The notes beneath the pieces are model-generated. The model saw nothing but the letters and a program-made list of their open reading frames with translations, was not told the origin of the DNA and did not search any database. 64,000 nucleotides of DNA from Leucoraja erinacea (Eukaryota). The stretch spans positions 14,508,001 through 14,572,000 of the forward strand of contig NC_073405.1 of NCBI RefSeq assembly GCF_028641065.1. The letters run 5' to 3'. Position numbers and translations under genes: made by a program. Position 1 is the stretch's first letter. Each line of letters starts with the position of its first letter. This document shows positions 17,606 to 60,218 of this stretch, in pieces.

Positions 17606-17620
17606 ACTACATGTTTTAAG

Positions 17621-17744
17621 TGTTCAAGAAGGGACTGCAGATGCTGAAGGGTTGAAGAAGGGTTTCGGCCCGAAACGTTACCTATTTCTTCGCTCCATAG
17701 ATGCTGCTGCACCCGCTGAGTTTCTCCAGCATTTTTGTGTACCT
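17621..17744 (+). mobile_element. Solo hammerhead-like module with 13-bp TSD
   Basis: TACATGTTTTAAG at 17608-17620 and 17745-17757. Core TTGAAGAAGGGTTTCGGCCCGAAACGTT preceded by an inverted piece of the module tail. Confidence 0.8.
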
Positions 17745-18889
17745 TACATGTTTTAAGATTGTTTTTGAATAGGACCATGTGCAAAATATGCCATGTTTTG
17801 GCACCATTTTGTAAGTCAAAGCTGCACAAAGACCCATTCCAGCCATCATCCTCCATCTGGATCGCCAGTGTTCTGACATCCACTCTCGTCTGGCCTTCAG
17901 CCTTCGTGCCTCGGGTGCTTCTTAAGGTACAGTGTTTTGCATACTGTCTAGAGATCAGATATACCATACATAGATAAAAATGAGTTCAAACTCACACACA
18001 ATAGATAGAGCAAAGGGGAAGATGCAGAGTGCAGAATACAATTCTCTGCATTATTGTGTAATGTAGTGCACCAGTTCCTTAGACAAAGCCCAATGTCCTC
18101 ATTGGGGTAGAGGTGAATCAAACAGTACCCTTGTTTATGGAAGGCAGATATATTAGTGGTGTTTAAGATGCGCATGTTTAGAATGGCGCATGAATATTCA
18201 GGGAACATATGGATCATGTGCAGGCAGAAGGGATTATTTTAATTTGGCTCAGATATCATGGGCGATAGGGCCTGTTCCTGTATTGAATTTTTCGACATTC
18301 TGAGTTCTAAAAAATTATGAAATGCGGGAAACAGTCTGATCCTCATACATTTTTGCTCTTTGCACAGATGTTGGCTGGCTTGCTGGGCGTTTCAGCAATT
18401 TCTGATTCTGCTTTAGCACAATCGGCTGTTCCAATTGTTGGCACCAGGGGGTGGCATTGTGGTGTGTGAAGATGAGAACACGAGTTGGTTGGAAAGGGAA
18501 AAGTGAGGCAGGTGGGTGAGCCATTCAGTTTCTCCATCCTTTTCCAATTATGCTCATTGAGGTGGTGCTGATCGGTGAATAAAGCCCAAACCATGGAGAA
18601 AGTAATCTTGCCCTTTAGACTTGCTGTCCAAAAGAAATGTAATTTTCCTGTCTGCCTGCCAGTGGAATCACAGTAACTTAATTCAGACCCTGAATTTGAA
18701 TTGTAGAATCATACAAGCCTGTCAGTCCACTGAGTTGCTGCTGATACCATGTGTCCATCTGCACTCATTGTGCACTAACACCCCTCAACTCCCCCCCCAA
18801 ATCCTACCCCTCATCCACACAACTGGCATGATTTACAGTGATCAATTATCCCAGCAATCTGCACATCTTTGGGATGTGGGAGGAAACCA

Positions 18890-19110
18890 GAGCACAGTGA
18901 CACAGTTGGTAGAGCTGCTGCCTTACAGTGCCACAGACCCGGATTCGATCCTGACTCTGGGTGCTGTCTGTACGGAGTTTGCACGTTCTCCCTGTGACCA
19001 CGTGGGTTTTCTCCCACATCACAAAGACGTGTGGGTTTGCAGGTTAATTGATTCTGTAAATAGCCCCTAGTGTGTAGGATGAGGAAGTGGGATAACATAG
19101 AACTAGAACT
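18890..19110 (+). mobile_element. tRNA-derived V-SINE (HE1-like); inverted partial copy at ~18700-18890
   Basis: A-box-like cacagttggtagagc, B-box ggattcgatcc, V-domain ggagtttgcacgttctccctgtg...ctcccacatcacaaagac. Confidence 0.8.
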
Positions 19111-19559
19111 GAGTATCTAGTCCGGCATTTGACTTGTTATGGTATGGAGGGCTATGGGCCAAATGCTGGCGAGTAGGATTTATACAAAAAGGTACAATAG
19201 TTGGTTGGACATGATGGGATAAAGGCCTGGTTCCATGTGGTATTAATATTTGTCTCTACAACAAAAGGTGAAATGATGCAGGGATTTTAAAAACAAGGCA
19301 AGAAGTTAACAAACAAGGCGATCACAGGGTAATGGATCCAAGGTGTAAATTAAACTATGGACTACTCTGGATCTGCCCAGTGCCTCCATATAAACACACA
19401 TGACTATATCCATCTGAGACAAGGAGCCAGGAATCGCCAGCCAGATGAGCTGTATGAAACGTATGATAAAATCATAGGTTTGTAGAGTTGTCGATACAAC
19501 CAAGGCTGATATGCACCTTGTGGACAGTGATGTCCTAATGTTATCAACACTGAGCCAAA

Positions 19560-20100
19560 GAATCATACAACAAGGAAATGGGTCCTTCGGCCCAACTCGT
19601 CCATGGTACTTACCTGAGTTAGTCCCATTTGTCTCCGTTGCCTTTATATCTTTCCAAACTATTCCTACCCATGCCTTTTAAATAAAATTGTACCCAACTC
19701 AAACACTTTCTATACCAGCTTGTCCCACATAACTACCCCACACTGTGTGAAAAATGTGTCCCTCAGGTCCTCTTTAAATCTTTGCCCTCTCACCTTAATG
19801 CTATACCCTCTGGATTTTTTCTCTCCTACTGTGGGGAAAAAACTGTAGCTTTGCCTCTCATGATTTTTAAAACTTCTAGAAAGTTACCCCTCAACCACCT
19901 TTGCTCCAGGGAAAGCAATTCCACCCAACCCAATCTCTCCGTATAACTTGTGCCCTCCAATCCTTGTGATTTTTTGCTGCACCCCACATCCTTCCTATAG
20001 CATGATGACTAGAAATGCACACATTATTTCGTGCAGTCTCACCATCTTGTACTGCCGCAATAATGATGCCCCAGCTCTGGTGCTGAAACTTGGCCGACAA
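19560..20100 (-). mobile_element. Old CR1 3' fragment
   Basis: CR1 3' UTR and ORF2 C-terminal remnants on minus strand. Confidence 0.65.
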
Positions 20101-20770
20101 AGGCAAGTGTGCCACATACTTTCTTTACCACCCTGTCTCACCGCGTCACCACTTTTTGGTGGTTGAGATACTTTATGGGAAAACATCTGCTGATGTACAA
20201 CATCTCCAAAGAGTGGAATGCCAAGACCCTTTCCATGGATCCTGCCTCTATTGGGATTGGCAACCTTGCCCCCCATCATGAACCTTCGTTGGTGCCACAG
20301 CCGACATAGTACAAGCCCAGAACTCTGGCAATCTCCAGGCCAAGTATTGGACCTATATTTCTATCACTGTGGCCAGAACAGTGTTTTTTTTTTTTGTGTC
20401 TCTGGAAAGTAAGTTGATGATCAGTTTCTTTCAGATACTGTACATGTCCTCAACTGAAGGGGTTAACAGGAACCGTCTGACAATGCCTATCCTGGAACTG
20501 TGATTCATCTTCTATTTTTAATAATCCCCATGGTGACAGATTTGAAAGGAAGACTAACACAAAAATGTCAAATAAACAGTTCATAATGATTTCCAGCAAT
20601 ATTTGAGGACATTCCTAAAGCAGGAAACTACACTTGAGGAAGGATATTCCTGTCCGATGAAGCATCCTAATTTGAAAGTTTGGATTATTTAACATCAGAA
20701 AAGAAAGTCTCTGCTGTTAGAGAAACAATAAAAACAGAAGGAAGGCAAATGGCAAAAAGATTATGCCTTA

Positions 20771-21104
20771 TGGGCCAGTCCCACTTAGGCGATTTTTTAG
20801 GCAACTACAGGCGACTAGTTTGTCGCCACATGTTCGCTGGTGGTCGCCGAGAGTAGTCTCCTCAGTCACGCAAAAAGTCGTAGCGTCTTTCTGGTCGGTG
20901 CTAAATTTTCAACATGCTGGGAATTTTTTGGCGACAGTGGGTTTGATGCCAATGAGCGTAGCTTGACATCTCCTGACGCAGGTGCAGTCGTGGGTTGTTG
21001 CCAGGATGACATGGGTTGTCGCAGGTTTTTTGGCGACCTGCTACGACTATGACAGTCACTGGTAGTTGCCTAAAAAAAAAATATTGCCAAGTGGGGCAGG
21101 CCCA
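20771..21104. mobile_element. PIF/Harbinger-like MITE
   Basis: TIRs TGGGCCAGTCCCACTTAGGCG... / ...CAAGTGGGGCAGGCCCA with TTA at 20768-20770 and 21105-21107. Confidence 0.8.
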
Positions 21105-21324
21105 TTAGAAAAAGACAGGTACTGTTACAATTGTAAAGAGTACTGGCGAGGTGATACCTGGAGTAAGGTGCACCATTTTATATCCTTTATTTACAAAAAG
21201 ATATCTTGGCTTCAGAGGCAATTCACAGGGGATTCACCAGGCTAATTCCTGGATGAGAGGAATGTCCTAGCCTCCTGTATTCCAGAAAGAATTTTACAGG
21301 AATTCAAAGCTCAGCATGAAATAA

Positions 21325-21610
21325 GGGCAGCGCAGTTGGTGGAGCTGCCCGAGACCTGACCTCAAGTGCTGTCTGTGCAGAGTTTGCACTCATGGGTTTC
21401 CTCTGGGTGCTGCAGTTTCATCCCACATCACAAAGGTGTGCGGGTTTGAAGGTTAATTGCCCCTGGTATCTTAGGAGTGGATAAGAAAGCGGGATAACAA
21501 AGGACCAGTATGAACTATGGATGGCATGGAGTTGAGTCTGATCGATGGTCAGCATGGACTCAGTGGGCTGAAGGGCCTGCTGCCATGCTGTGTCTTTAAA
21601 ACTAAGAACT
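21325..21610 (+). mobile_element. V-SINE (HE1-like)
   Basis: Homologous to 18890-19110, with the gggctgaagggcctg 3' end. Confidence 0.7.
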
Positions 21611-22964
21611 AAATCTCTTGTCCAATTTCTTTATGCAAAACATAACTTTGCCCACTACAGTGGTGTATACCCCAATGGCACTCTTGATGAAGACTGAGAA
21701 TATGTTTTTGCCTTGTTTAACAGCAATTGTCCTTGTTGAACTGAAACAGAGGAGTTACAGAATCATTATATTGTTGATCAGTAAGAAACTCACAGCCACC
21801 TAGCCAACTGACACACTCAGGTCAGGTAGCATCCGCGGAAGCAAAGTTGTTGCCTGTTCATGTTCTTGACCCTTCATCAGAACTTTTGATTTTAATTAAT
21901 TGCTATTTAAACATGTGGCACACACGACACAATCCTCGCCCAAAGTGAAGACATGCCGTTAATGATCCATTAATCTTCACCCTCATCAGCTCCATGCTTC
22001 ATTTAGGGAAAGATACGTGTCATGGATCAAGAATCAAGTGTGTTTCATTGTCATATGTGCAGCCAACTAAACAATGAAATTCTTATATGCTGCAGCAGAA
22101 CAGACCTGTAAACAAAATACACATAGATGTTATATAATAAACAAAAATTCAACACATTAATATTTGTTTGGCCAGCTGTATTCTATCTATAGAAATCCAT
22201 TCCTTTTTCTTCTTCAGAGGTTGATGAGTTGACTCTGCATGAGCTGGGCAGCGAGATTGAACTCGCAACTTATATCAACTCTTCATGATCCCAGATCCAA
22301 TTGACTTGCTGAAGATGTATGAGTCTCAACAGGTCTTTCCTGCCACATCCTCTGCACCGATCAATTTGGAGACAGGATGAGTCTGTTTGAATGAAGCAAC
22401 ACACCATTCCTCTATCAGGATGTCTACCTGAACCCCGTGGAGCCGGTAAATGGGTGGGAGCCAAAGGCAGAAGTCACAAGCGTACATTGCTGGATAGAAC
22501 TGTTCTGAACACACAAAGTACACACAGCTCATTGCTCACTCTGCTTACAGTTCTCACGTGCAGATGCCAACTCTATGAATCACTGCACAGACTTCTCATT
22601 CTCAGTAGAACGCTACTTGCTCTGCACACAATCCCCGTACAGCTCAGCCTGCACACGATGCACACTCACACTCTGTTCATCTAGTTTCCTCACACTGCAC
22701 TACCAGTGCAAGCTGTGCACACACAGCTCACTCATATGTAGAGTGCCACACATTCCGCACACTGTTCTTAACCATGCTGCTCACATAAGTGTCACTCTGC
22801 ACCCATTGCTCACTTATATTCTACATACATTGCCCTTTGCCTCGAAGGTTCACTATCTGCATATACAGTTCATTCACACAATGCAAGTACAGGTCACTCT
22901 GCACACAACACACCCACACATGGTTTACTTTGCTGCCACATCTCCTGCGTGCACTGCTTTGTCA

Positions 22965-24226
22965 GCAGTAAAAGGATCGGTCTGAGTCAGCATGGATTTA
23001 CCAACAGGAAATCATCCTTGACTAATCTGGAATTTTTTGAGGATGTAACTAGGAAAATGGACAAGGGAGAGCCAGTGGATGTAGTGTACCTGGACTTTCA
23101 GAAAGCATTTGATAAGGTCCCAAATAGGAGATTAGTGGGCAAAATTATAGCACATGGTATTGGGGTTAGGGTACTGGCATGGATAGAAAATTAGTTGGCA
23201 GACAGGAAACAAAGCGTAGGGATTAACGGGTCCCCTTCAGAATGGCAGTGACTAGTGGAGTACCGCAAGGCTATTATATATTATTATATACATTAATGAT
23301 TTAGATGAAGGGATTAAAAGTAACATTAACAAATTTGCAGATAACACAAAGCTGGGTGGCAGTGTGAACTGTGAGGAGGATGCTATGAGGATGCAGGGCA
23401 ACTTGGACAGGTTGGGCGAGTGGGCAGATGCATGGCAGATGCAGTTTCATGTGGATAAATGTGAGGTTATCGACTTTGGTGGCAAAAACAGGAAGGTAGA
23501 TTATCTGAATGGTGTCAAGTTAGGAAAATGGGAAGTTTTGGGGGAGATCTGGGGGTCCTTGTTCATCAGTCACTGAAAGTAAGCATGCAGGTACAGCAGG
23601 CAGTGAAGAAAGCTAATGGCATGTTCGCCTTCATAACAAGAGGAGTTGAGTAGAGGAGCAAAGAGGTCCTTCTGCAGTTGTACAGGGCACCTAGTGAGAC
23701 CACGCCTGGAATATTGTGTGCAGTTTTTGTCTCCAAATTTGAGGAAGGACATTCTTGCTATTGAGGGAGTGCAGTGTAGGTTCACAAGGTTAATTCCCGA
23801 GATGGCGGGACTGTCATATGTTGATACAATGGAGCGAGTGGACTTGTATACTCTGGAATTTAGAAGGATGAGAGGATATCTTATTGAAACATATTATTAA
23901 GGGATTGGACAGGCTAGAGGCAGGAAACATGTTTCCGATGTTAGGGGCCACAGTTTAAGAATAAGGGGTAGGCCATTTAGAACGGAGGTGAGGAAAAACC
24001 TTTCCACCCAGAGAGTTGTGAATCTGTGGAATTCTCTGCCTCAGAAGGCAGTGGAGGCCAAATCTCTGGACGCTTTCAAGAGTTAGATGGAGCTCTTAAA
24101 GATAGCAGAGGATATGGCAAGAAGGCAGGAAAGGGGTACTGATTGTGGATGATCAGCCATGATCATAGTGAATGGCAGTGCTGGCTCAAATGGCCTACCC
24201 CTGCACCTATTGTCTGGTGTCTATTG
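22965..24226 (+). mobile_element. CR1 LINE, 5'-truncated, frameshifted
   Basis: SQHGFT..., VVYLDFQKAFDKVP, GVPQG, KFADNTKLGG, LEYCVQFLSP and 3' UTR. Interrupts a CA-rich low-complexity tract (22500-22960, 24230-24590). Confidence 0.92.
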
Positions 24227-24740
24227 CACTATTCCCAGACAACCTGCTTCATTCACACATACTTTGCACGCTACACAAATTGTCATTAACGCACAGTGCT
24301 CTTTCACACTACTGCTGCCACACACACACACACACACACACTCACTCATGCAATGTGCACACTGCTCACTCTGCACACTTCATTCATCGCTTTATTATAC
24401 AGAGCTGACTCAGGTTTTTCACATGCAACATTTATTAATTCACACTACACAGCCTACATTGCTCACTCTCACACTGCATACTCTTCGCTATTGCCACTCA
24501 TTTGCACTTTTCACAGTCCTCACTCGCAAACACTGCTCAAATGCACTTACACATAACATGTCCTGCTTTCATCACTCCACTCTCACTAGCAATGTTTGCA
24601 GCAGGAACTTAGACAGTATTCATATTTTGTTCCAAATGCTAATTTATTTATATATATATTTTTAAATAATGGCACACAAGCATTCATTTGTTTTCTTTCA
24701 AATGGTTGATTGATATCTATAGAAACAAAAAGCAAACATT

Positions 24741-24746
24741 TTTATT
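24741..24746 (-). promoter_or_regulatory. Candidate polyadenylation signal of the MISP-like gene
   Basis: AATAAA on minus ~580 nt after the stop codon, followed by U/GU-rich aatgtttgctttttgtttct. An alternative AATAAA lies at 24643-24648. Confidence 0.5.
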
Positions 24747-25323
24747 TATAGTTCTCTTCATGAAACTGAGCATTTCATGTAAATTTACCAATCTAAAGAA
24801 ACGCTGCTAAGAGGTCTGTGATGTAGAGGGAATCGGGGGGAAATCTGGCTGTGAATACTATAACCCATTGCCTTCATGGCAAACAAGTGGCAACTGTCTG
24901 ATAAGGCACTGTGGTTATTAAAGAAAGACACAATCATGGGTCTCAACATCGAGGTCGGAGACTGGATACTGGAAAAGGGTTTCTGTGACTCAGTTTGTGT
25001 TTAATGGAGAACATTGCATAATAGTATTATTTAGGTTGTGGCTGAGATAGTACATGTGTGAGATTGATGTAGCATTGAACTCACATAGAACGAAGTGAGG
25101 AGTTGGATGGGATTGCAAACTTGGGGCAAGAAGATTGGACCTCAAATTTGTGTCTTTGTTCTTGAAGTTTACTGGTCACTGTTTGAAAACAGGAGAGTCA
25201 CTCAGAGATGGAAATTTGTCCAGAGTGCTATAAAGAACTTAATTTCTGATCAATAGGCAGTGCTTTCCATAATTTCACTATCAATATGTATACAATTATA
25301 TATTGCTGGCAGCTGGGCTGGCT

Positions 25324-29960: not shown

Positions 29961-30831
29961 CAGAAACATGAGCGTGAAGGCCACACTGACAAGAGCTATA
30001 ACTTTAGAACAGCTTTGGTCAGAGTTGGCTGGTCGGCACCATGTCCATGCCGACAACAGCTATTTAGATTGTAACGGCTCCACAACACTCGGTGCATAGT
30101 ACCGTGGGCCGTGGCTCATCAAACGATCGTCCAAACACACTTACATACGATGACGGCTCCCGTCTCCAACACTCTGCCAGGCCCAGTTCCAGCTGCCACT
30201 ACTCTTTGGTGAAAAATAATTCTTATTCTCCTTTAATCGTTCTCCTAATTAATTTTGACTTGTGTTAGGTTTAGGACAGCAGAGTGTTATCAGTGATAGA
30301 GCTGCTATCTCATGGCACCGATGATTTAAGCTTAGTCCTTTGGTGACCTGTGTGGGATGAAAAGCTACTTCCAGTGAGCACATAGGTTGCCCACCGGTGC
30401 TCTGCTTTATTCCTATATCTAAAGGTCAGGTTGATAAGTTGATTGGGGTCTGCAAGTTATTTCTCCCATGTATGTGAGTAGTAGAAAGTAGACAAACAAA
30501 TGCTGGAGAAACTCAGCGGGTGAAGCAGCATCTATGGAGAGAGGGAATAGGCGACATTTTGGGTCAAGACCCTTCTTCAGATGATAGAAATGCAAGAAAA
30601 TAAATAGAATTGTGTAAACAGATGGTGTGGGTGAAGTGCAGGGCCTGTTCCTGTGCTGTATGACTGTATGGGGCCCCCAAGCTATCAATTAATCATGGTT
30701 AAGATAACGAGAAGCATACACAGATCTGGTCTGAGGTCTTGTGTGCAGTTTCAGCATGACCTGCCTGCATTCATATTTTATTCCTCAGCCAATAAAGTCA
30801 TATTCTGCCATCTGATTAGCTTGAGGGATGT

Positions 30832-30958
30832 TTAAGAAGGAACAGCAGATGCTGGAAAATCGAAGGTAGACAAAAATGCTGGAGAATCTCAGCAGGTGAG
30901 GCAGCATCTATGGAGCGAAGGAAATAGGCAATGTTTCAGGTTGAGACCCTTCTATAGA
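30832..30958 (-). mobile_element. Solo hammerhead-like module with 12-bp TSD (another solo copy at ~30490-30582)
   Basis: CTTGAGGGATGT at 30820-30831 and 30959-30970. Insert starts at the decayed core gtctatagaagggtctcaacctgaaacatt. Confidence 0.8.
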
Positions 30959-31223
30959 CTTGAGGGATGTGTGGTTATGTACACCAAGGGCTCTATTTCT
31001 TCACACTTCCATGTCCTAGAGTCTATATCCATGATGTTGTTCAGTAACTTGTCCTTGTTCCCTTTTATACCAGGATCTTGGTTCTAAAGTTTAAATGATC
31101 TGAATCGTTTAGTCTGTATCATACCTTAACATTGCACAGAGACATTGACCAGAGACATTGAAGTCTAATGCATTCTGCATTGAGGAACATTGTCAATAGT
31201 TAAACTATGTCACATCAACATGG

Positions 31224-35435: not shown

Positions 35436-36553
35436 GGTAGACACAAAATGCTGCAGTAACTCAGCGGGTGAGGCAGCATCTATGGAGAGAAGGAATGGGT
35501 GATGTTTCAGGTCGAGACCCTTCTTCAGACTGATGTTAAGGGAGATGCAGGACAAAGATAGAATGTAAGCAGGAAATGAGTTCCCCTCTTCCATTATAGA
35601 TGAGGCTTTCACTAGAATGTAGAGACAGTAAGACTAGTGGGAGAACTGGGAAGGGGAAGGAGAGAGAAAACAAGGGCTATCTGAAGTTTTTAGAAGTCAA
35701 TGTTCATACTGCTGGGGTGTAAATTACCCAAGCAAAATATCCCTTTGGAGGTGGCGGAAATGTTGGAGGACCAACATTTTTGCCACCTCCAATGTGATCC
35801 CACTACTAGCCACATCTTCCCATCTCCACCCCTTTCTGCTTTCCGCAGAGACCGTTCCCTCCGTAACTCCCTGGTCGACTCGTCCCTTCCCACCCAAAAC
35901 ACCCCTTCCCTAGGTACTTTCCCCTGCAACCGCAGGAGATGCAACACCTGTCCCTTTACCTCCCACCTCGACTCCATCCAAGGACCTAAACAGTCTTTCC
36001 AGGTAAAGCAGCGGTTCACTTACACCTCCTCCAACCTCATCTACTGTTTCCGCTGTTCCAGGTGTCAACCTCTCTACATCGGCGTGACCAAGCGCAGGCT
36101 CGGCGATCATTTCGCTGAACACCTCCGCTCAGTCCGTCTTAACCTATCTGATCTCACAGTGGCCCAGCACTTCAACTCCCCCTCCCATTCCCAATCTGAC
36201 CTTTCTGTCCTGGGCCTCCTCGATTGTCAGAGTGAGGCCCAACGCAATTTGGAGGAACAGTACCTCATATTTCGCTTGGGTAGTTTACACCCCAGTGGTA
36301 TGAACATTGACCTCTCTAATATCAGATAGCCCTTGCTTTCTCTCTCCTTCCCCTTCCCAGTTCTCCCACTAGTCTTAATGTCTCCACCTATATTCTATCT
36401 TTGTCCCGCCCCCTCCCCTGACATCAGTCTGAAGGGTCTCGACCCGAAACGTCGCCCATTCCTTCTCTCCATAGATGCTGCCTCATCCGCTGAGTTACTC
36501 CAGCATTTTGTGTTTACCTTCGATTCTACCAGCATCTGCAATTTTTTCTTACA
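35436..36553 (+). mobile_element. Penelope-like element 3' part with inverted pLTR arm (35436-35735) and GIY-YIG ORF remnant
   Basis: ORF 35700-36329 has CNRRRCNTC, NLIYCFRCSRCQPLYIGVTKRRLGDHFAEH and LHPSGMN. The left arm is the reverse complement of the 3' end; both arms carry the hammerhead-like module. Confidence 0.9.
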
Positions 36554-36815
36554 CTTCTTCGACTTATTTCCTTCATTTAGATTGAAAACCAAGGTTTCAG
36601 ATTAAACGGGTTCATTTCTGATCTTCATGTAAAATTCTGTAATATACATGGTCTCTTTACCCTGTGGCCCTACTGTAACAAGATCACCTTGTACAGAACC
36701 AGCTCTAATGTAGACACACAAGAAACTGCAGATGCTAGAATTGTGAGCACAACACAGTGCTTAAAAAACTCAGCAGGTCAGGCAGATTTGTGGATCTGTC
36801 ACCTTCATTAGATCA

Positions 36816-36911
36816 GTGTGAAGAAGGGTCTCGACCCGAAACGTCGCCCATTTCCTTCGCTCCATAGATGCTGCCTCACCCGCTGAATTTCACCAGCATT
36901 TTTGTCTACCG
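36816..36911 (+). mobile_element. Solo 96-bp hammerhead-like module with 11-bp TSD
   Basis: TCATTAGATCA at 36805-36815 and 36912-36922. Insert begins GTGTGAAGAAGGGTCTCGACCCGAAACGTC. Confidence 0.85.
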
Positions 36912-37659
36912 TCATTAGATCATATCAACCTACAACTATTTGTACCATCATTTCATCAAAATTGATAAAATACTTGGACTAATCAAAATATATCACAAGC
37001 TGTTAGACAAACATGGGAAGAAATAACAATGGTTCTGATTATGATATTCTGGCTACACACTGATGCCAAGGGGGTGAAAGACTGTTATTATGGTGTCATG
37101 GTTTAAGAAAGGGAGAGAGGATAGAGCATGTAATTACAGTTCATGTTACTATTGATGGTGGGTACATTATGTTCAGAAACCACGGAGGGCAGTGTAAAGC
37201 ATTGTGTAGAAAAGCAAAATGAATCCGCATGGTTTGTTTAGGGCAAAGATTCTAGAGGAGCAAGATAAACCACTCGACGAAAAAGCTGTAGGACGGTCAT
37301 GGGCTCATGGGAAATTTGTTTTGCGCCATTTTGTGAATCACTTATATGAGGGGGGTTTTTTGAATGGGCCTCTGTCATGGCGTCTCCTCTAGAATCTTTG
37401 GTTTAGGGAATGTTCTGTCTAGCAGTGTTGAATGGATTTTAATGAGGTGGTGGTTGACAAGGGGAGCTGTTAAGGACAACACATTTTCTATCATCCACTT
37501 AGATGTTAATAAGCAGTTCGATCTAATGCAGGATTTTGGCAAAATCCCATATGATCTGAAGAAAATAGCAAGTTTATTTAAGAACCGAGTGTCCTGGTTG
37601 TGTGACTTGATACATTATGCCAGGCATTGATCCTGGTTGAGGATTAACATCGTTCTTGC

Positions 37660-45979: not shown

Positions 45980-46172
45980 CTAAAGATACACATGAAATGC
46001 CGGAGTAACTCAGCAGCTCAGGCAGCATTTCTAGAGAAAAGCATTAGGTGATGTTTTGGGTCGAGACCCTTCTTCAGACCTCAGCCTAAAGAAGGGTCTC
46101 AACTCAAAATGTCACTTAATGCTTTTCTCCAGAGATGCTGCCTGATCCCTTGAGTCACTCCACATTTTTGTT
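45980..46172. mobile_element. Penelope pLTR hairpin (two inverted hammerhead-like modules)
   Basis: Arms ~46005-46080 and ~46085-46160 are reverse-complementary. Confidence 0.75.
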
Positions 46173-46626
46173 TTAAAGCATCCATGTTTTGGGCATTTTT
46201 AATTCACACCTCATCCTTGGTGCCTATATAATTTTTCAGTTAATTACATCATAACAATGTCCTGGGGCAGGGTTTTAATCATTTTGCAAAATGTATTCAG
46301 ACTACTTTGATCTGGTGGTGTTGCCTTTGTCAAGAATTCAATGTCACTTCTGCGCCTTCATGGGGGTCAAGGAAAGAGCGTTCACGTTGCGGCCCTGTTT
46401 TCACCAATCTTTTCACCACCACACACCAGAAGCGACAAGACAGACACCATTGTAATGCAGATGCCGGGAAGTGTGTTCAGCTCTGGCTGAACACCTTCTA
46501 ATCTTGTATGTGGACTCAATAAGAAGCACCTTCATACCCACTCAGGTTTCCCATTGCTTACAAACTGAATACGCAGAAGTTTTTTTCCTATTAATAACAT
46601 CTTTTAAGATTGAGGCAAAGGGAATC

Positions 46627-46721
46627 GGAAGAAGGGTCTCGACCCAAACTGTCACCCATTCCATCCCTCCGGAGATGCTGCCTGTCCCACTGAGTTACTC
46701 CAGCTTTTCGTGTCTATCTTC
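46627..46721 (+). mobile_element. Solo 95-bp hammerhead-like module with 6-bp direct repeat
   Basis: GGAATC at 46621-46626 and 46722-46727. Insert begins at the core (ggaagaagggtctcgaccc). Confidence 0.65.
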
Positions 46722-47799
46722 GGAATCTATCTTTCCCTGCCTTTCTCCACTCAGTTGAAGTGTTAACATTCCCATTTACCTGCTGTCTAATCTACTTCCT
46801 GAGGAAAAGAAAGGTGCCAAAATCTAATGTATGTATTTCACCAGCCAATACTTGCAGATCTATTGTTCAGACAGGAGGAGCTAACTGCCCTGTTGTGCCT
46901 TGCTATCATCAGGTTGTAGGATATGGTCAGCAGCTTCTTTAATGCCCCTAGGAAGGAATTATGGAGTCATATAGCATGGAAACAGGCCCTTGTCCCAACT
47001 TACCCATGCCGATAAAGATGCCCCATCTAAGCTAGTCCCATTTGCCCTGCATTTGGTCCTTATAGCTCTCTAAACCTTTCCTATCCAGGTACCTACCCAA
47101 ATGTAATGGAGTAATTGAGGGCTACAGCACGGAAACAGGTGCTTCAACCCACCATGTCTGTGACAATTGTCAACCACCATTTTTGCTGCACAATATCAGT
47201 AGCAGAGTGTGCATTACCCTAGGAGCAAGAAAGAGCACCGTCCCTCCTCACAAACGGCTGAGGGATGAATTAACCTGATCACTCTGACTGGAGACAAACA
47301 ATGAATCAACGTAGAAGGGCTGTAATAGGAGCCGTGGGAAAACCAGTCTTGGGCAGGCTAGTTGAACAGCAACAGAACAACTTTAGTACAGTAAAATGCC
47401 TCACAGAAGCTTTAATGAACGATTTAAAAATGGACTAATTAGATCGTAAAACATAATGTAAAATAATGCTGCAGATGATGGAAATCTGAGCCAAAACAAA
47501 GACTCTGCAAATCAGACAAGAACCATGGAAAGAGAAACAGTTTGTTTGTCCGAACAAAAGAAAGCAAAGTAAGTTTTAAGTTGCAGGGTAAGTGGGTAAG
47601 GGGTGGATGGGATAAAGGGGAAATCTGTGATAAGTTGGGACCACACTTGTTGTGGGGATGGAATAGTAATGGGGCAGTTGGGGAACTGAGCCAAGATCAC
47701 AGGTGAGTGGGTAACTTTGCCACACAGCAGTTTTAATCCAGACAGAAAAAGTGGGTTAGCAGAGGTTGGAGAATCCAATAGTATTTGGAAGGCTGTAGG

Positions 47800-50454: not shown

Positions 50455-52045
50455 CAATAGACAATAGAAAATACAGGAGTAGGCCATTTGGCCCTTCGAG
50501 CTAGCACCACCATTCACTGTGATCATGGCTGATCATCCACAATCAGTACCCCGTTCCTGCCTTCTCCCCATAATCCCCTGACTCACTATTTTTAAGAGCC
50601 CTATCTAGTTCTCTCTTGAAAGCATCCAGAGAACCTGCCTCCACCGCCCTCTGAGAATTCCACAGACTCACCACTCTGTGAGAAAAAAGTGTTTCTTCGT
50701 GTCCATTTTAAATGGCTTACTCCTTATTCTTAAACTGTGGCCCCTGTTTCTGGACTCCCCCAACATCGGGAACATGTTTCCTGCCTCCAGCATGTCCAAG
50801 CCCTGAACAATCTTATACGTTTCAATGAGATACCCTCTCATTCTTCTAAACTCCAGAGTGTACACGCCCAGCTGCTCCATTCTCTCAGCATATGACAGTC
50901 CCACCATCCCAGGAATTAACCTTGTAAACCTACGCTGCACTCCCTCAATAGCAAGAATGTCTTTCCTCAAATTAGGGGACCAAAACTGCACACAATACTC
51001 CAGGTGTGGTCTCACCGGGGCTCTGTACAACTGCAGAAGGACCTCTTTGCTCCTATATTCAATTCCTCTTGTTATAAAGGCCAACATGCCATTCGCTTTC
51101 TTCACTGCCTGCTGTACCTGCATGCATACTTTCATAGACTGATGTACAAGGACCCCTAGATCCCGTTGTTCTTCCCCTTTTCCCAACTTGATGCCATTTA
51201 GATAGTAATCTGCCTTCCTGTTTTTGCTACCAAAGTGGATAACCTCACATTTATCCGCATTAAACTGCCATGCATCTGCCCACTCCCCCAACCTGTCTAT
51301 GTCACCCTGTATTCCTGGGAGTCAACATCTCCGATGACCTCTCTTGGACCCACAATACCTCTACTCTGATCAAGAAGGCTCATCAGCGTCTCTTCTTCCT
51401 GAGGAGACTGAAGAAGGTCCATCTGTCTCCTCAGATCCTGGTGAACTTCTACCGCTGCACCATCGAGAGCATCCTTACCAACTGCATCACAGTATGGTAT
51501 GGCAACTGCTCTGTCTCCGACCGGAAGAGTAAAGAAGTTGCAGAGGGTGGTGAAAATTGCCCAACGCATCACCGGTTCCTCGCTCCCCTCCATTGAGTCT
51601 GTCCAAAGCAAGCGTTGTCTGCGGAGGGCGCTCAGCATCGCCAAGGACTGCTCTCACCCCAACCATGGACTGTTTACCCCTGTTACCATCCGGGGCAACA
51701 GGTTTGCTTGCCGCTTTTTAGGTTGCCAAATGACAGGTCGAGGAACAGCTTCTTTCCGGCGGCGGTTACTTGCATGAACAACGTACCTCGGTAACTTGTT
51801 CACACCCCCCCCCCCCCCCCCCCCCCCCCCGTCGGAATTTTTTTCAATTAAGCTCAATCGTTTGGATAACTCTCACATTAAATGCATTTCGTTGCCATGC
51901 ATCTGTACACTGACAATGACAATCTATGAATCTGACCCTGAATTCACATAGCATCCTCCTCACAGTTCACACTGCCACCCAGCTTTGTGTCATCTGCAAA
52001 TTTGCTAATGTTACTTTGAATCCCTTCATTGAAATCATTGATGTA
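50455..52045 (-). mobile_element. CR1 LINE 3' part, interrupted by Rex1
   Basis: ORF 50668-51291 (KCEVIHFG...RPHLEYCVQFWSP). Resumes after ~51935 (KFADDTKLGGSVNCEED). Confidence 0.92.
51311..51934 (+). mobile_element. Rex1/Babar 3' fragment, same subfamily as 14508-15450
   Basis: Near-identical sequence, flanked by accctgtattc / accctgaattc (candidate TSD). Confidence 0.9.
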
Positions 52046-53264
52046 TATTGTCCTTTTATTCTGAGGCTGTCTCTCTGGTTTTGGACTTGCCCACTACCGC
52101 AAACATTCTGGACTCGCCCACTACTGCAAACATTTTCTCCACATCCACTCTATCTAGGTCTTTCATTCACATAAGGGACGGAGAGGAGATTCAGTCACAG
52201 AGGGGAGATGAAACTCCACACAGACAGCGGGATTGGACCTGGATCTCATTGAACCAATGAGGCAGCAGCTCTATTGTGCCACCCCTATTAGCAACTATTT
52301 CAAAATACCATAATAGATGAAGTTATACAGAGTTAGGAAGTTGTGAAAACAATAAGCTTGATTCACCATCATTTCCCTGGGTAGGTGCTGGCAAGTTCAA
52401 AACTCTCATGCGATTGTTTGTAGGCTGGAACCTACTGGCAGCTATTTGCTTGTGATTCTTGGGCTACAACAGAATTCAGTGGAGAAGCAGGAGGGTACTT
52501 ACGTTAAGCATAAGTACATTGGAATCGATTTGGACAATCTCATAGTATTCCTCACCACTGATATTATTGGGAGAGAACAGGTACAGAAAAAATCAACATG
52601 TTTTTGTGCAGGAGAGTTCATGTGTCTCAAATTTGAGTGAACTTATTGAGCAGACGAGCAAGAAAATTGATGAAGACTGTGCAGTAGACATTGTTTACAT
52701 GGGTTTTAACATAGTCCCCCATGACAGGCCAGTCGAGAAAGTTCAGACACAAGGAACCTGAGGTGTTTAGAGATACAGCGTTGAAACAGGTCCTTTGGCC
52801 CACCAGGTCCATGCCGACCAGCGATCATCCTGTGCACTAGTTCTATCCTACATACTAGGGACAATTTACAGAAGCCAATTAACCCATAAACCTGCATGTC
52901 TTTGGGACGAAACCCTGCTTCCGCTACCCTACACCCATCCCTAGCACTTCCTGCCCCAGCAGAGAATCTTGTCGCCACCACACCCAGCCATCTACTCTCT
53001 ATCTTCCACTGTTCCTACTCCTGGCTTCTAGCCCAGACCCACCCTGGTCTCTGGATGTCCTTGCTTCCTGTCTGAGTGCTGTGCTGGTGCTGGTGCTGTC
53101 ACTGGATAAAGGGTCTATTGTTCTGAAAGTCTGACAGCCACACCCTGATCCTCTGGTGCACCTGAACCTCCTGCAGCTCTGTGAAGTTGTGTGATATCAT
53201 GTAGCTGACTCGTTCAGGCAATGCCAAAGACGTTCTCGGCTGCCATCTGGTCATTATCAGCTGT

Positions 53265-53760
53265 AAGTCATAAGGGATAGGAGTAGGTTTAGGTCATTCG
53301 GCCCATCAAGTCTACTCTGCCATTTAATTATGGCTGATCTATCTCCCTCCTAACCCCATTCTCCTGCCTTCTCCCCATAACCTCCGACACCTGTACTAAT
53401 CAAGAATGTATCTATCTCTGCCTTAAAAAATATCTACTGACTTGGCCTCCACAGCCTTCTGTGGCAAAGAATTCCATAGATTCACCACCCTCTGACTAAA
53501 TTCATTTCTCCTCATCTCCTTCATAAAAGAACGTTCTTTAATTCTGAGGCTATGACCTGTAGTCCTAGACTAGTGGAAACATCCTCTCCACATCCACTCT
53601 ATCCAAGCCTTTCACTATTCAGAGGTTCAATGGTCATTTATTGTCACGCGTACCAATTAAGGTACAGTGATATTCAATTTGCTATCTGTATGTTTCAATG
53701 AGGTCCCCCCTCATTCTTCTAAACTCCAGCAAGTACAGGCCCAGTGCCGACAAGCACTCA
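53265..53760 (-). mobile_element. CR1 3' end with small nested retroposon tail (~53622-53685)
   Basis: Typical CR1 3' UTR and LYLLEFRRMRGDLIETYR. Confidence 0.8.
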
Positions 53761-56700
53761 TAATAGTCTGTATGATGACAACCTGTAGTCTGTGATAAGC
53801 AGGGTTCTCATTGCACACTATCCACACATCGAAAAGCCACTGTGTCCAAACCTCTTTCTGATCTCCTGAGTTTATGAGAAAAGAAAATTTTTCCTACAAG
53901 GTGAAGCATGCCATAACTTTAGTAGCTGAGAATTCAAGTATTCCCACCATTACGGTGCTGCCGGATGGTGTGGATTGACTGTGGGGTTGAAAGAGTGCGG
54001 GTGACAGCTATTCACCAGGAAACAGGGAATAAGGAGGGAAGAGAGGAATCCAGCTTCACCTGAGTAAACTGCCACAGGTGCCTCACCCCTTCCAGTCACC
54101 CAACCAGGGTGGGACAGCGTCTCGCAAGGCAAAGACAAAAGGCTTATTCCAAAGCCAGATGAAAGACTCCACAGAAAGCAGTCAATGCCCTATATCCTAT
54201 TCTGACAGGACTGGTTACAATAATACAAGGGATTGAATTAATTCCTTTCTGTAAACACAGCATGGACAAACAATGATATACCATTACAGCATACACACAG
54301 TTTAAAGCTGATCCAGGTCCCATACTGTCACATTCATGTACAATGTTTTTGAAAGGAGAGTCATGCTGACAATCCAACTCACTTTGTGTGGGTTACTCAC
54401 AGTTTCAAAAGAATGGCAATAAATCTCTGAGTTAATGTTTCAGGCTAATGACTCCATTAGATCATGTTGCACTACGTCTGCAGCTAATCGCTCGTTGGAA
54501 GTCCTGAACTTTCTGAGAGGCTCCTGTCGCTGTTATCCTGAGTGTTCTGTACAATGTTCCTCATGGAGTTCCCTACTATGGGCTGAAGGGCCTGTTTCCA
54601 TGCTGCATTATTCTATATTCCGCATTACATTTATAGCTCAGTATCAAGTTGCTGCAGATTCTGAGCAATCATTCAGGGAAAGCTGGGCACTGAACCTGCG
54701 AGACTATCTTCACCACATGTATTGCAGCCTTTCATAAGCTGGCTCACTGCTCTCTTTGTCGAATACCCTCCAAATCCCAAAATGATTAAATGATAAACAG
54801 ACCTTTCAAATTATTAAAAAAAATACAAATAGGCAAGAGCACCAGGCAGTAATCTTTCTGTTCAGTATTACATCAAGAAGCGGTCACTTCCAGCAATTGA
54901 AGTACACTTAACACACACAAGGGAACAGCAGACCAAGCAATTGGGTTATTCCCAGCAGCCTAGGACATGTGTGTTTATAAAGTAATATAAAAATGGAGAA
55001 ATACAAGGAGATAAGAATGGACCAATGGACCAGTGGAACTGATCAGGTACCCACACAGTGGGGCAACATTGGAGGAGCAGTCAGCCTAGTCAGTCCAACT
55101 CAAAAAAAGCGTAAGCAACTCAGACTGCCTCACTGGGCATGTAGGTGGACAAGTTCAGGTGAATTAAAGTAGAAAAGGTTGAGAAATTTGTAAAGTGGTG
55201 TGGGTATTGGCAGTGTTGTAGAAGATGTAACGCACACCGTGGAGAAAGTTAGTTGGCTGTGGGATTATCGTTGTCGTAAATGATGAATTTGCACGCACCG
55301 CATTGGAAAGATTTAGCTCCTTCATCTTTTGTGGGGAAGCTAACAAATGGCACAGTGGTCATCCAGTTGATAACAGGCAACAATTAGGTATGCCTCGTGC
55401 TCTGGTTGCCATGGGGAAACCTATTAAAGGCCAAGATCCACAACGCATGTGGCATGGGTGCGGCAGCAACGGTTTTTCTGGGATACAACCCAATTTGGGG
55501 GGATGCTTATTTTGGTGTTAAATGTAGCCCAAGGCGTTGGTTTGGGATGTGCTTTCTGAATAGCCTGTGTGAGTGACTGCAGTACATTTTGTAAATTGCA
55601 CACACTGTAGCCACTGGACTAGTAGTCCATTGGGATACCATCAAGCTGGCTGCTTTGCCATGGACTTTGTTTTGCCTCCAGAGAGTTGTAGGTGCTGCAC
55701 TCATTCATGCAGGTGGAAAGGAATCCATCATGCCAATGGTGGAAAGGCCTCAGGGTGTTAGGAGGTGAGATACACTTGGCAGCATAGAGCAGTACAATGA
55801 TCAGTCTAGTAGAGCTGTTGCCTCACAGCTCTAGTGATCACTTCAATACTGACATCCAGTACCCACGTGGGTTTCCCCCCGACGTTCTAGTTTCTTCCTA
55901 CATCCAAAAGATATGTGGGTTGGTTGATTATTCGACTGCTCAGTTACCCTTAACAAGTAGATGACAATATCAGCCATTTTCCTTTGTGTGAGGGATGACT
56001 TCAGTCTTTGGAGTGTTTTCTCCTTGATGTACAGTGACCAGTTTTACCTAGGCTTCTTAATGCAACACTTGATCAAACACTTCTTTGATATCAAAGACAT
56101 GACTTTCTGACCTCACATTTGGAATTCAAAACTGTGATGATGTCTGCAGCAAATGATGGGGAGACCAAATGGAATACTAGCTTTTTTTGACAGGAATATA
56201 TGAATGAAGGAGGAAGGATATCCTATTGCATTTGTACAAGGCAACAGTAATCTTGTGTCAAAGATTATGGGGAGAAAGCAGAAGAATCGGGTTGAGATGG
56301 GGAAAATAAATCAGTCACAATTGGTGCAGTAGATCCGATGGGCCGAATGACCTAATTCCACTCTTATGCTTTACGGTCTTGTGCACAGTTTCATGCAATA
56401 GCAGATAGCTGCGAGGATTCACTGGACCGTATCAAGGGATGGAAGATTTATTATTTGAGGAGACATTGAGTAGATTGGGGCTGTAGTTTCTGGAGTTTTG
56501 GACGAAGGTCTTGGCTGTTTGGAACTGGGATGGGGAGAATTTCCTCATTCAGAAGGGAGGAGAGTTGTGGAGATTCTGAGTTAATACAAAACAGAGACCA
56601 TGGATTTCTGAACATTAAGAGGATCAAGAGACCATCGAGGGCAATGGGACCAAGTTCGAGGGTCAACCAAGACTAAGGATTAGATGGATCACTTCCCATC

Positions 56701-56875
56701 TTATTTCATATGTTGGTCTGAACCTGACACCCGAGTTCCATATTCTACCATTTCTCAACATCTTTGCTATCTTCAGCTCACAAAACATTTGGTGGGGGAG
56801 GACTGGTTAGATTATCAATGTTTCTCTGCCCCCAGTTCTCAGGACTGTTTGCAGTTCATATATCATATCATATCT

Positions 56876-57040
56876 NNNNNNNNNNNNNNNNNNNNNNNNN
56901 NNNNNNNNNNNNNNNNNNNNNNNNNNNNNNNNNNNNNNNNNNNNNNNNNNNNNNNNNNNNNNNNNNNNNNNNNNNNNNNNNNNNNNNNNNNNNNNNNNNN
57001 NNNNNNNNNNNNNNNNNNNNNNNNNNNNNNNNNNNNNNNN
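56876..57040. other. Assembly gap (165 N)
   Basis: N run. Confidence 1.
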
Positions 57041-58076
57041 AACGTATTTCCTCGAAAACCAGACGCAAAAACGCGGAGATTTTTACATATTTCCGTAGGG
57101 ATTTAATTTATGATTTCAGAAATCCAATCCTCTCTAGATTTGGTCAATTATTTCCCCAGATTTTGAATAAAATTGTTCACAAAACATCAAAAAAAATTAA
57201 AATCTGCTGCATGAGTCACAGTACCACCTCACAGATGTCCAATCACAATGGATCTCATTTACTTATATGACATCACAATGGGACAGGTGTGGGAGATTGC
57301 TACCTTCACGTGGTCCCACTAAAATCAAACTGCTGCATGAGTCACCGTGCCATCTCACAGATGTACAATCACAATGGATCTCATTTACATATGATATCAC
57401 AATGGGACAGGGGTGGGAGATCTCTCCCCCTCCCTTCCACCCCCATGCCTTTCCCCCACTGCCCCCTTCTCTCCCCTCCCCCTCTGCCTTACCCTCCTCC
57501 TCTCCCCTCCCCCTCTCCTCCTCAACCCCTCTTCTCCCCCCTCTCCCCTCTCCTCTCACATCTCCCCTTCCCCCTCCCCTCTCTATCCCCCTCCCCCCTT
57601 CCCCTCCCCCCCACCACCCCCTCCCCCCATCTCCCCTTTCACCCCCAACACTCTCTCCCCTCCCCTCATCCCCTCCCCCTCTCTCCCCCCTCCTCCCCCC
57701 CCCCTCTCTCCCCTCTCTCCCTCCCCCTCCTCCCCCACCCACCCTCTCCTCCTCCTCCCCTCCATCCCCTCTCCCTCTGTCTCTTGCCCTTCTGTCTCTG
57801 CCCCTCTCTCTCTGTCTCTCTCCATTCTCTCTTGCCCTCACTCTCTACACCCCCCCCCCCTTTCTAGACGCGCCTGCGAGTTGGGGGCTATGCGTCAGTG
57901 GATAGGGTGGTAATGGGGTAAAAGGAGCAAATTAATAATATTAATATAATATCAAGGGGGGTAGTTAGCGTGTGTGCAGGGTGGTAGTTAGTGTGCGTTA
58001 CGCCACATGCCGCCCCCACCCTCCCCCGCAACCGCACTTTGGGGGAACAGACCCAACGGGTCTGCACTTGGTCTAG
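57041..58076 (+). mobile_element. Non-autonomous Helitron (5' end in or before the gap) with internal ~125-bp tandem duplication and pyrimidine tract
   Basis: 3' hairpin CAGACCC-AAC-GGGTCTG (58048-58064), CACTTGGT-CTAG|T at 58076. Duplication at ~57200-57300 and ~57325-57422. Confidence 0.85.
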
Positions 58077-58789
58077 TAAAGTATTAAAATGATCATGTTT
58101 GTTGATCCCAATTATATTATTCAGCTTTATCCTGTATTGTTTCGAGTTGGGAGTGGTTGTTGTAAGCAAGAGTTCAAACGTTTTGGAGTCAAAAGTTCAG
58201 TTTCATTAACGTGACTGTGTAAACGTGAGGGATAAATACTCATCAGCCTTGGTGCACTGATGCTTTTGTTTGCGAGGAGCTGGCTGCCAAGATCCGGCTC
58301 CCACTTTTCATCAAGTGATGCGGGGACACACCCAGTCGGCACAGTCATACAGCACGAAAATAGACCCTTTGGCCCAACTTGTCATGTCGACCAAGATGCC
58401 CCATCTAAGCTAGTGCCATTTGCCGATTTTGGCCCATATCCCTCGGAGCCCTTCCTATCCATGTACCTGTACAAATGTATTTTAAATGTTGTAAATGTAC
58501 CTGCATTAACTGCTTCCTACGGTAGCTTATTCCATACACCACCCTCTGTGTAAAATAATTGCCCCTCAGGCTCCTATTAAAATGTTTCCCTCTCACCTTA
58601 AACATTTGCTCTCTAGTTCTTGATTTCATTACCCTGGTTAGATGCTCATTGTGTCTCAACTCCCAGTTCTCAGGTCAGGTTGCAGTTTATCCATGAGATA
58701 TTAACATTATATAGTTTGTTGATCCAGATTATAATTCCAGGGAAAAACTTGATGCATTCATTCACCTTATTTCCCTCAGTATTTTATTC

Positions 58790-59030
58790 AGGGTGGCATT
58801 GTAGAGCTGCTCCCTCATAGTGCCAGAGATCCGGTTTCAATCCTGACCTCATCTACTGTCTATGTGGAATTTGCACATTGTCCGGTGTAGGTTAGTAATT
58901 TAATTGGCCTCTGTAATTCCCCCTAGTGCATAGTTGCATGGTTGCAAAAGTAGGATAACATAGCACTAGTGTGAACAGGTTGGCATGAATTCTGTCGGCT
59001 GAAGGGCCTGTTTCTCCATGCTGTATATTT
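58790..59030 (+). mobile_element. V-SINE (HE1-like), internally deleted
   Basis: gggtggc...gtagagctgc, tcctgacctc, tgtggaatttgcac, gctgaagggcctg. Confidence 0.7.
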
Positions 59031-59969
59031 GACCTAATCAAAACCTCTACAAGATCAACTCTCAGCCTCCTACGCTCCAAGGAGTAAAGTCCACTCCAAA
59101 CCCTCCCAACAGCTCAGGCTCTCAAGTCTCGGCAACATCCTCATAAATCTTCTCTGCTCTTTCCAGCTTAATGGCATATTTCCCAATACAACCACCAAAG
59201 CTGAACACAATCATCTGTGTGGTCTCACCAGTGTCTTGTACAATTGCAAGTACAGTTCCATGACTGATGAAGGCCACATACTAAAAGTCTTCACCACCTG
59301 ATCTATCTGATACGCCACATTCAGGGAACTATGTTCTTGTACTCATAGATCCCTCTGCTTTCTCTCATTCCCAGGTATCTACATTATGAAGATCATGCCC
59401 TGGTTTAACTTCCCAAATTGCAATGCCTCATACTTAGAGGAAGAAGATTGGACTTTATTACCTTCCATCACAGTGAGGAATGTGGGGAATCCGCTGAGTT
59501 GATGTTTATGTTAACTTTTATGTAGTTGTGTGTTGTGTTGCTTTTTTTTTAGTATGGCTGTATGGTAATTTGAATTTCACTGTACCTTAATTGGTACACG
59601 TGACAATAAACTGACCTTGAAACCTTGAAACCTCACCTGAATTAAATTCCATTAGCCATTCCTTAGCCACTGAGTAACCTGGATGGTGCTCAAGAAGCAG
59701 AAGTTGCTACCAACCTCTATGGTGATGAAGTGATTAAGAGGTGTGTTATGGTCCATATCCACTCCTACCTTAACACAAACCTGCACCTACTACAATCTGC
59801 CTGCTGTCACAAAAGATCAATGGGAGATGTGATCTCGCTGGCTCTCCACTCTGCGCTGGACCTCTTGGACAATTAGAACACATACATCAGGCTGTGTTCA
59901 TTGACGGGACACAAAAAAGCTGGAGAAACTCAGCGGGTGCAGCAGCATTTATGGAGCGAAGGAAATAGG

Positions 59970-60000
59970 TAACGTTTCGGGCCGAAACCCTTCTTCAGAC
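59970..60000 (-). ncRNA. Minimal type I hammerhead ribozyme-like motif (intact core) in a 96-bp solo insertion (59906-60001)
   Basis: CUGAAGA-A-GGGU(UUCG)GCCC-GAAAC-GUU. Insert flanked by ATTGAC at 59900-59905 and 60002-60007. Confidence 0.65.
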
Positions 60001-60218
60001 TATTGACTACAGTTAGGCATTCAACAGCATCATCCCCTCCAAACTTGTCACCAAGTCCAGGGAACTGTCTGCGCATCCCTTTGCAACTGGATCCTTGACT
60101 TCCTCACCAGCAGGCCACGATAGGTACAACCTGGATAACAACACCTCCACCTTGTTAACCATCAGCAAAGGGAAACCTCAAGGCTGTGCGACCTGTCCCC
60201 TGCTCTATTCACTCTATA

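Follow-up and report, generated by a model that had tools for sequence, protein, structure and literature searches.

Short hammerhead-bearing inserts in Leucoraja erinacea share a sharp 5' edge with the Penelope-like element from which they derive

A 64,000-nt stretch of the Leucoraja erinacea genome (hereafter the window; assembly GCF_028641065.1, contig NC_073405.1, positions 14,508,001 to 14,572,000) holds 20 copies of a short module carrying a hammerhead ribozyme motif. The module is the hammerhead-bearing 5' untranslated region (UTR) and pseudo-long terminal repeat (pseudo-LTR) of a Neptune-type Penelope-like element (PLE), and its copies share a 5' edge just before the ribozyme core. On balance, we think that the short inserts form when the PLE reverse transcriptase (RT) primes inside the 5' UTR and runs off the 5' end of its RNA, much like strong-stop DNA. 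The shared start likely marks where the RNA of the PLE begins, rather than a new self-copying ribozyme element.

Module positions refer to a consensus of 1–137, in which the C of CTGAAGA is position 7 and hammerhead cleavage is predicted after position 34. A single module insert is termed a solo, two inverted modules a head-to-head pair, and the 5' edge at positions ~4–9, just before the core, the wall; short copies are also called stubs. The genome sample of 1.064 Mb was made up of the window and 100 stretches of 10 kb taken at even spacing; a profile search found 436 module matches in it, extrapolating to ~0.9 million copies per genome.

The module lies both before and after an open reading frame (ORF), as in the partial tandems that make pseudo-LTRs, and thus serves the ORF unit as 5' UTR in front and as pseudo-LTR at the back. 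In the window it is preceded by sequence coding for GIY-YIG, the stop codon of that sequence and a UTR rich in pyrimidines, and an upstream walk from the endonuclease through the same genome arrived at the module again: five ORF-bearing copies are led by it, three of which begin at the wall without upstream UTR. The start codon lies ~37 nt downstream of the module tail. Among 30 loci chosen by tail and ORF start, 7 begin at the wall, 10 are tandem, with endonuclease and UTR upstream (some are likely duplicates on small contigs), and 13 are cut inside or rearranged. The C-terminal endonuclease displays YIGET..R...R..EH and a pattern of two Cys and two His. GIY-YIG (PF01541) was the sole Pfam match, in 3 of 6 proteins (E 3.6e-4 to 6e-3, 17–21 bits, below the cut-off of 22.6). 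QGVAMG..MGP and YLRYIDD, which we take to be RT motifs, stand in frame upstream of the endonuclease; Pfam returned no RT match to the PLE proteins, and a PDB sequence search with the RT piece gave 0 matches. A C-x4-C-x2-C linker at locus L133 points to the Neptune/Nematis group, a clade defined by a CX2-5CxxC linker between RT and endonuclease (PMC8557442); the assignment is by linker rather than by a tree separating Neptune from Nematis. Every subfamily carries a pyrimidine tract ending in CAG at positions 3–5, before the core.

Several arrangements were seen at individual ORF-bearing loci. In most copies among L174–L220, the start codon sits inside a splice-donor-like AAG/GTATG, and no spliced retrocopy was found. 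At L189, an ORF-bearing unit begins exactly at position 4, with internal RT-coding sequence of another PLE copy upstream, which is either an insertion into itself or a template jump. At L088 and L089, the first ~30 nt of the ORF are joined to a second module at positions 2–4 through CTCTC microhomology, the whole ORF between them being absent.

The 5' edge was analyzed in 361 copies from the sample with a normal 3' end and sufficient flank: 128 end inside the module, 166 within positions 1–12, and 67 continue into UTR or ORF. Of the 233 copies reaching position 12, 166 (71%) thus end within the next twelve positions, where 4% were expected. Loss per nucleotide is 0.003 at positions 31–80, 0.010–0.018 at positions 13–30 (partly alignment erosion), 0.059 at positions 1–12, and 0.0034 upstream. 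The wall stands 2–3 nt before the core and ~30 nt upstream of the cleavage site. A first-pass annotation of the window had argued against random 5' truncation, and the end plot bears this out, showing a sharp wall rather than a smooth distribution. Across 102 copies without UTR, agreement with the consensus letter falls from 80% at position 8 through 75% (7), 71% (6), 62% (5) and 53% (4) to 34% and 36% at positions 3 and 2, approaching background at positions 3–1, compared with 85–92% in 64 UTR-bearing copies. Edges defined by flanking duplications, which are independent of alignment, fall within ±10 nt of the wall in 21 of 39 cases in a 270-nt search window. Among 508 copies, 41 solos are bounded by duplications; of the 31 not selected by their first letters, 30 start at positions 4–9 and 1 upstream. 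Exact counts over the whole genome gave 11,908 matches ending after position 4, 15,990 after position 5 and 2,268 in a stricter position-7 class. ORF-bearing copies share the wall (3/5 and 7/30).

Long and short copies alike have 3' ends at positions ~95–103 and ~130–137, ~34 nt apart, and these two ends of the PLE tail explain the constant lengths of 95–96 and 127–135 bp. In reads from another organism, loose ends pile up at position 4 (713 reads), 99–101 and 135–136. An anole PLE likewise has its tail between two internal RT initiation sites, from which both strands are extended on uncleaved RNA (PMC11167929). We found 102 head-to-head pairs among 564 matches, a set that includes 20 loci picked for long copies. 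The optional 30–40-bp tail occurs on one arm of inverted pairs, a tailed arm being combined with an untailed one in 53 of 67 classifiable pairs (p = 5e-7). A layout of an inverted copy with a one-sided tail is published for PLEs (PMC8557442, PMC3846280). A single duplication flanks 39 of 101 pairs, versus 3 in the control, and of 109 solos, 21 lie between repeats of at least 8 bp, compared with 1, 0 and 1 in three shifted controls; the duplications are mostly 12–15 bp long. At 5' junctions there is microhomology, or filler copied from the target or from the module's own start. The pair and tail counts fit priming by both cut strands at two sites, and the first-pass annotation is right that each insert goes back to its own retrotransposition event, with a Penelope-type RT as the driver.

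Positions 2–10 of the module form the near-palindrome TCAG-T-CTGA, and several head-to-head junctions (e.g. L015, L071) read CTTCAG(A/T)CTGAAG, as though two complementary DNA (cDNA) ends had annealed across it.

The following features were placed in the window (window coordinates and strand).

17608..17620, no strand: left copy of a 13-bp target-site duplication, matching exactly the right copy at 17745-17757
17621..17646, minus: inverted 26-nt piece of PLE tail carrying the distal 3' end; forms the second arm where the insert is two-armed (minus-strand alignment to consensus 99-136)
17647..17652, plus: 6-nt filler repeating module positions 13-18 in sequence
17653..17744, plus: module from position 8 to the proximal 3' end, subfamily B (alignment to consensus)
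30832..30958, minus: 127-bp solo from position 6 to the distal (tail) end, between the copies of a 12-bp duplication (30820-30831, 30959-30970); its 5' junction has microhomology (AG)
36816..36911, plus: 96-bp solo from position 5 to the proximal end; 11-bp duplication at 36805-36815 and 36912-36922
46627..46721, plus: 95-bp solo from position 8 to the proximal end; weak 6-bp repeat at 46621-46626 and 46722-46727
59906..60001, minus: 96-bp solo from position 4 to the proximal end with an intact minimal hammerhead core; 6-bp duplication at 59900-59905 and 60002-60007
10622..10756, minus: further solo from position 4 to the tail end; 13-bp duplication, 10-nt filler ending in G
4239..4462, no strand: head-to-head module pair, both arms at the 5' wall
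45980..46171, no strand: head-to-head module pair, both arms at the 5' wall
35771..36553, plus: 5'-truncated parent PLE with linker, GIY-YIG endonuclease end, stop, pyrimidine-rich UTR and module 36424-36553 with tail; start approximate
35436..35770, minus: inverted arm of the same insertion, UTR and module ending at the proximal site; inner end approximate

Five solos with exact direct repeats of 13, 12, 11, 6 and 6 bp had been reported, and all five inserts and repeats are present. Four are simple, whereas 17621-17744 is two-armed (inverted tail, filler, module) rather than a plain solo; its filler likely arose from RT slippage at the template end. As target-site duplications the repeats are of unequal weight. 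That at 59906 is independently confirmed by empty sites: the insert lies inside a Rex1-like RT coding stretch (LFIDYS frame), and 10 of 11 paralogous Rex1-like copies are uninterrupted there with one copy of the hexamer, the eleventh having a deletion. The 6-bp repeat at 46627 is weak, since a 6-bp direct repeat within ±3 nt of fixed ends has a chance rate of 2.8% (3000 random window positions). Four inserts do begin 0–3 nt from the core, at positions 6 (30958), 5 (36816), 8 (46627) and 4 (60001), and three are indeed 95–96 bp long (36816-36911, 96; 46627-46721, 95; 59906-60001, 96). The CTGAAGA said to mark the starts is intact only in 59906-60001; the others read CTATAGA, GTGAAGA or CGGAAGA. 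The solo at 36816-36911 was inserted against an older inverted fragment (36720-36793).

At 4318-4330, 17647-17652 and 46077-46090, 5' junctions carry short repeats of the module's own first bases, which would fit RT priming anew at an internal GTCT once it had reached the template end. Other repeats in the window belong elsewhere: inverted copies of a ~1-kb repeat (2237-3256 and 60273-61262) are 96–100% identical, and a second pair (14782-15142 / 51312-51679) is 99% identical. These pairs indicate other, much younger mobile families.

The module contains the parts of a minimal type I hammerhead, namely core boxes, helix II, a palindromic helix III and an NUH site. There are 80 matches to this motif, helix II being kept as GGGTC/GACCC or GGGTT/GGCCC, and helix I is only 2 bp; Rfam gave 0 matches in the window. 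Self-cleavage is predicted from the motif, and it has no visible part in making the inserts: 9 of 309 copies end at positions 31–40 and none at position 35, so that ends defined by cleavage are rejected and the earlier observation that the edge lies upstream of the core, away from the predicted cleavage site, stands. That annotation had also suggested that RT stops at the ribozyme. The place is right, but the ribozyme folds have already been copied before the stop, and the RNA end is the more likely cause. RNA structure as the stop was likewise rejected; 5 of 5 copies are predicted to fold with the core hidden in an alternative hairpin, scoring no better than shuffles (z −1.35 to +0.37), and RT would be halted by the 5' hairpin near position 47 instead. 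A small secondary pile of 5' ends occurs at position 47 (8/436), the 3' foot of the predicted 5' hairpin, and could be alignment noise. Four loci (L004:863-1194, L016:1-475, L053:5580-5778 and 9780-9971) share the unit of a 66-bp tandem repeat, which corresponds to module positions ~27–92 of an older subfamily and lacks the CTGA half of the ribozyme core; it seems to have spread as an array despite this loss.

If the inserts are run-off products, transcription would start 2–3 nt before the ribozyme core, and the two 3' end sites would be two internal RT initiation sites like those of the anole PLE. The endonuclease would make a staggered cut, in keeping with duplications of mostly 12–15 bp, and either or both DNA ends could prime: one primer would yield a 95- or 130-bp solo, two primers a head-to-head pair in which only one arm has the tail. 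Initiation close to the 5' end of the mRNA would bring the cDNA to the RNA end at positions 4–5 after ~95 or ~130 nt, and priming at the downstream pseudo-LTR would give ordinary long copies with random truncation. The cDNA end would then be joined by microhomology or short target-templated filler with trimming of 0–5 nt, the pattern visible at the junctions. Positions 2–7 read TCAGTC, where position 4 is the A of what is presumably an initiator-like motif, TCAGT(C). In L1, an extra G marks the copied cap (PMC11702581). Here, G precedes position 4 in 36.1% of copies (4,295/11,908) versus 29–36% depending on context, and precedes position 5 in 45/100 versus 34%, the position-7 control giving 19/100 versus 34%; 7 of 11 fillers at position 4–5 starts end in G. 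As a sign of a copied cap, this is suggestive only.

Several observations weigh against run-off. Loss per nucleotide is already raised at positions 13–30, and the wall is leaky: positions 1–3 and a few more letters are retained in 4 of the 7 wall-starting ORF copies, and positions 1–3 plus more letters in about 5–9 of ~90 solos. Duplications were not detectable in 88 of 109 solos. The G excess is small and is gone against an N-AG context (35.6%). Four RNA runs gave no pile of molecule starts or ends, and 75–95% of the aligned RNA reads continue into unlike sequence, representing passive transcription of embedded copies; dominated by these, the runs could not decide between run-off and its rivals. 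In Drosophila virilis the matching position is the 3' end of an intron (PMC4209133), transcription starting ~120 nt further upstream (46-nt exon plus 75-nt intron, PMC2377424), and here too a pyrimidine tract and CAG precede the core. Finally, the initiation sites are carried over by analogy from a Poseidon element to a Neptune family.

The main and real rival, which we nevertheless rate as rather unlikely, is a roadblock: all copies would be primed at the downstream pseudo-LTR, and RT would fall off in ~70% of cases where the module meets the C/U-rich tract, either at proteins bound to the splice-acceptor-like pyrimidine tract and CAG or through stalling by the growing G-rich cDNA. One RNA class would suffice, all subfamilies have the tract with CAG at positions 3–5, in D. 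virilis the intron stops at the matching position (PMC4209133), and some copies end a few nucleotides inside the tract. Most ends, however, fall at positions 4–9, where RT has yet to copy any of the tract, and their upper limit is sharp (30/31); the tract varies widely in sequence between subfamilies while the wall is fixed, and the G excess, if real, would go unpredicted. Cutting of the RNA at position 4, by a nuclease or by a second hammerhead at the UC/A step of positions 2–4, would leave an uncapped template with the same end. The triplet just ahead of the wall, positions 1–3, is indeed a cleavable one (AUC or CUC), and by inspection 5 of 6 helix III pairs could form in subfamily A, yet neither subfamily B nor the CTCAG groups could form these pairs, helix I would have a single base pair, and the wall is identical in all groups; we regard this route as improbable. 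For random 5' truncation, apparent only where a conserved motif begins, one can cite the low-complexity, variable upstream UTR and the very short PLE inserts of Chlamydomonas (median 128 bp, PMC9977147). With 21 of 39 duplication-defined edges at the wall and an ~18-fold jump in loss per nucleotide, this explanation is refuted here and has next to no chance of being correct. A spliced or back-spliced template would place an exon border at the wall, an acceptor at positions 5/6 having been joined either to host exons or to the donor-like AAG/GTATG of the start codon. The donor-like site does overlap the start codon in most ORF copies and the letters at positions 3–5 are exon-end-like, but 0 of 30 loci with TCAAG before position 6 run into a donor-side exon, letters upstream of position 3 are background (which also rejects a shared short first exon), fillers copy the target, and no such joint was among the best-supported RNA joints. 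Splicing as the main route is refuted and, as a whole, very improbable.

The first-pass annotation had offered a non-autonomous family as one source, and short master copies, perhaps transcribed as circles or multimers and mobilized by the PLE enzyme, would make the stubs a separate short interspersed element (SINE) or retrozyme. Stubs do outnumber long copies (166 at the wall and 128 shorter versus 67), they keep both priming sites and a putative internal promoter, making some re-mobilization possible, and pseudo-LTRs are the source of animal retrozymes (10.64898/2026.07.22.740005). In a tree with 206 copies, form labels change 44 times versus 49.6±2.5 when shuffled (9 of 200 shuffles were as low), a clustering slightly above chance in which no master lineage of the stubs is seen. 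Solo, head-to-head and UTR-bearing or long forms occur together in all five sequence groups, and ORF-bearing copies share the wall while stubs occur in every subfamily, which argues against a separate SINE or retrozyme. The head of the stubs is the PLE's own 5' UTR and not an RNA polymerase III head of SINE type; Rfam matched no tRNA, 7SL or 5S head in the window (ARAGORN was not run). A direct neighbour module accompanies 15 of 436 matches, short of the head-to-tail tandems of retrozymes. Tandem ribozyme multimers are not supported by a repeat scan of 191 sequences, in which no array with a full core extended beyond ~2 partial units and only the 66-bp arrays without core appeared. Back-spliced circle or ORF-skipping junctions were found at 0 of 30 candidate loci and, beyond chance, in none of the stored loci, and no module back-joint was among the best-supported joints of the poly(A) and single-cell RNA runs, which are poor for small circles. 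With no ends at the cleavage site either, the separate-family reading is already largely refuted, and we give it little credence.

Run-off could be part of a fuller scheme, which we put forward tentatively, as possible but somewhat unlikely: a dimeric PLE enzyme would prime both strands at two 5' UTR sites and copy to a capped initiator overlapping the core, the strong-stop cDNA having been inserted several hundred thousand times in skates. If true, a run-off end jumping to the 3' part of the RNA would explain pseudo-LTR tandems and head-to-head inversions with no need for cleavage, circles or antisense template. Each stub would then hold its own promoter and priming sites and could seed retrozymes. 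Among their relatives, PLEs stand closest to telomerase RT, and one PLE enzyme has been reconstituted. The ~0.9 million copies are a genomic record that agrees, in a second clade, with the in vitro finding of two sites and two strands; they further provide a base-precise 5' limit, a 12–15-bp stagger and a pairing rule (a tailed arm goes with an untailed one). Should the wall be the transcription start, the origin of pseudo-LTRs and inversions becomes open to bench test, and the hammerhead would not set unit ends.

Retroviral minus-strand strong-stop DNA is a short cDNA running from an internal primer to the RNA 5' end, tRNA-primed and not inserted, and in L1 twin priming both target strands prime to give an inversion, from the poly(A) end and variable internal sites; the skate stubs, in contrast, would be primed at two fixed sites and are inserted. 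With endonuclease-bearing (EN+) PLEs of the Neptune clade the skate family shares a putative RT followed by GIY-YIG, the CX2-5CxxC linker, partial tandems as pseudo-LTRs, an adjacent inverted 5'-truncated copy, a one-sided 30–40-bp tail, heavy 5' truncation and head-to-head junctions (PMC8557442, PMC3846280). It differs in that nearly half of its copies end at one base-sharp wall and are inserted as 95/130-bp stubs with 12–15-bp duplications, whereas the same papers attribute solo pseudo-LTRs of Adineta without duplications to recombination and head-to-head forms to self-priming on antisense RNA. The Anolis Poseidon element PAc also has two RT start sites bounding the tail, extends both strands and leaves cleavage unused, with no reads ending at the cleavage site; its ribozyme overlaps the start codon and its sites lie in the ORF, whereas the skate module is entirely non-coding UTR, and the available part of that paper describes no 5' wall or run-off product in the genome (PMC11167929). 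The minimal type I hammerheads of PLE pseudo-LTRs match in CUGANGA, one extra base, helix II, GAAA, palindromic ACGU and a 2-bp helix I as in D. virilis, and most such motifs are single and probably truncated PLEs (PMC4209133). There, cleavage and circles are proposed as the source of unit ends, while skate copies end ~30 nt upstream of the cleavage site. Animal non-LTR retrozymes are likewise short, non-coding, pseudo-LTR-derived units with a type I hammerhead and dispersed monomers, but are defined as tandems with at least 2 ribozymes, whereas the stubs are single or head-to-head and track autonomous subfamilies (10.64898/2026.07.22.740005). Very short de novo PLE inserts (PMC9977147) and retrozymes from pseudo-LTRs (10.64898/2026.07.22.740005) are known, as are tailed and inverted PLE inserts and single minimal hammerheads. 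No description of a base-sharp wall or of a strong-stop product was found in literature on PLE strong-stop, twin priming, skates, solo pseudo-LTRs or SINEs and cryo-EM, judged by titles and abstract starts, with subscription journals and Repbase notes outside the scope. The skate stubs are old and dead by-products of a class already known, and the mechanistic footprint that they leave is unusually clear.

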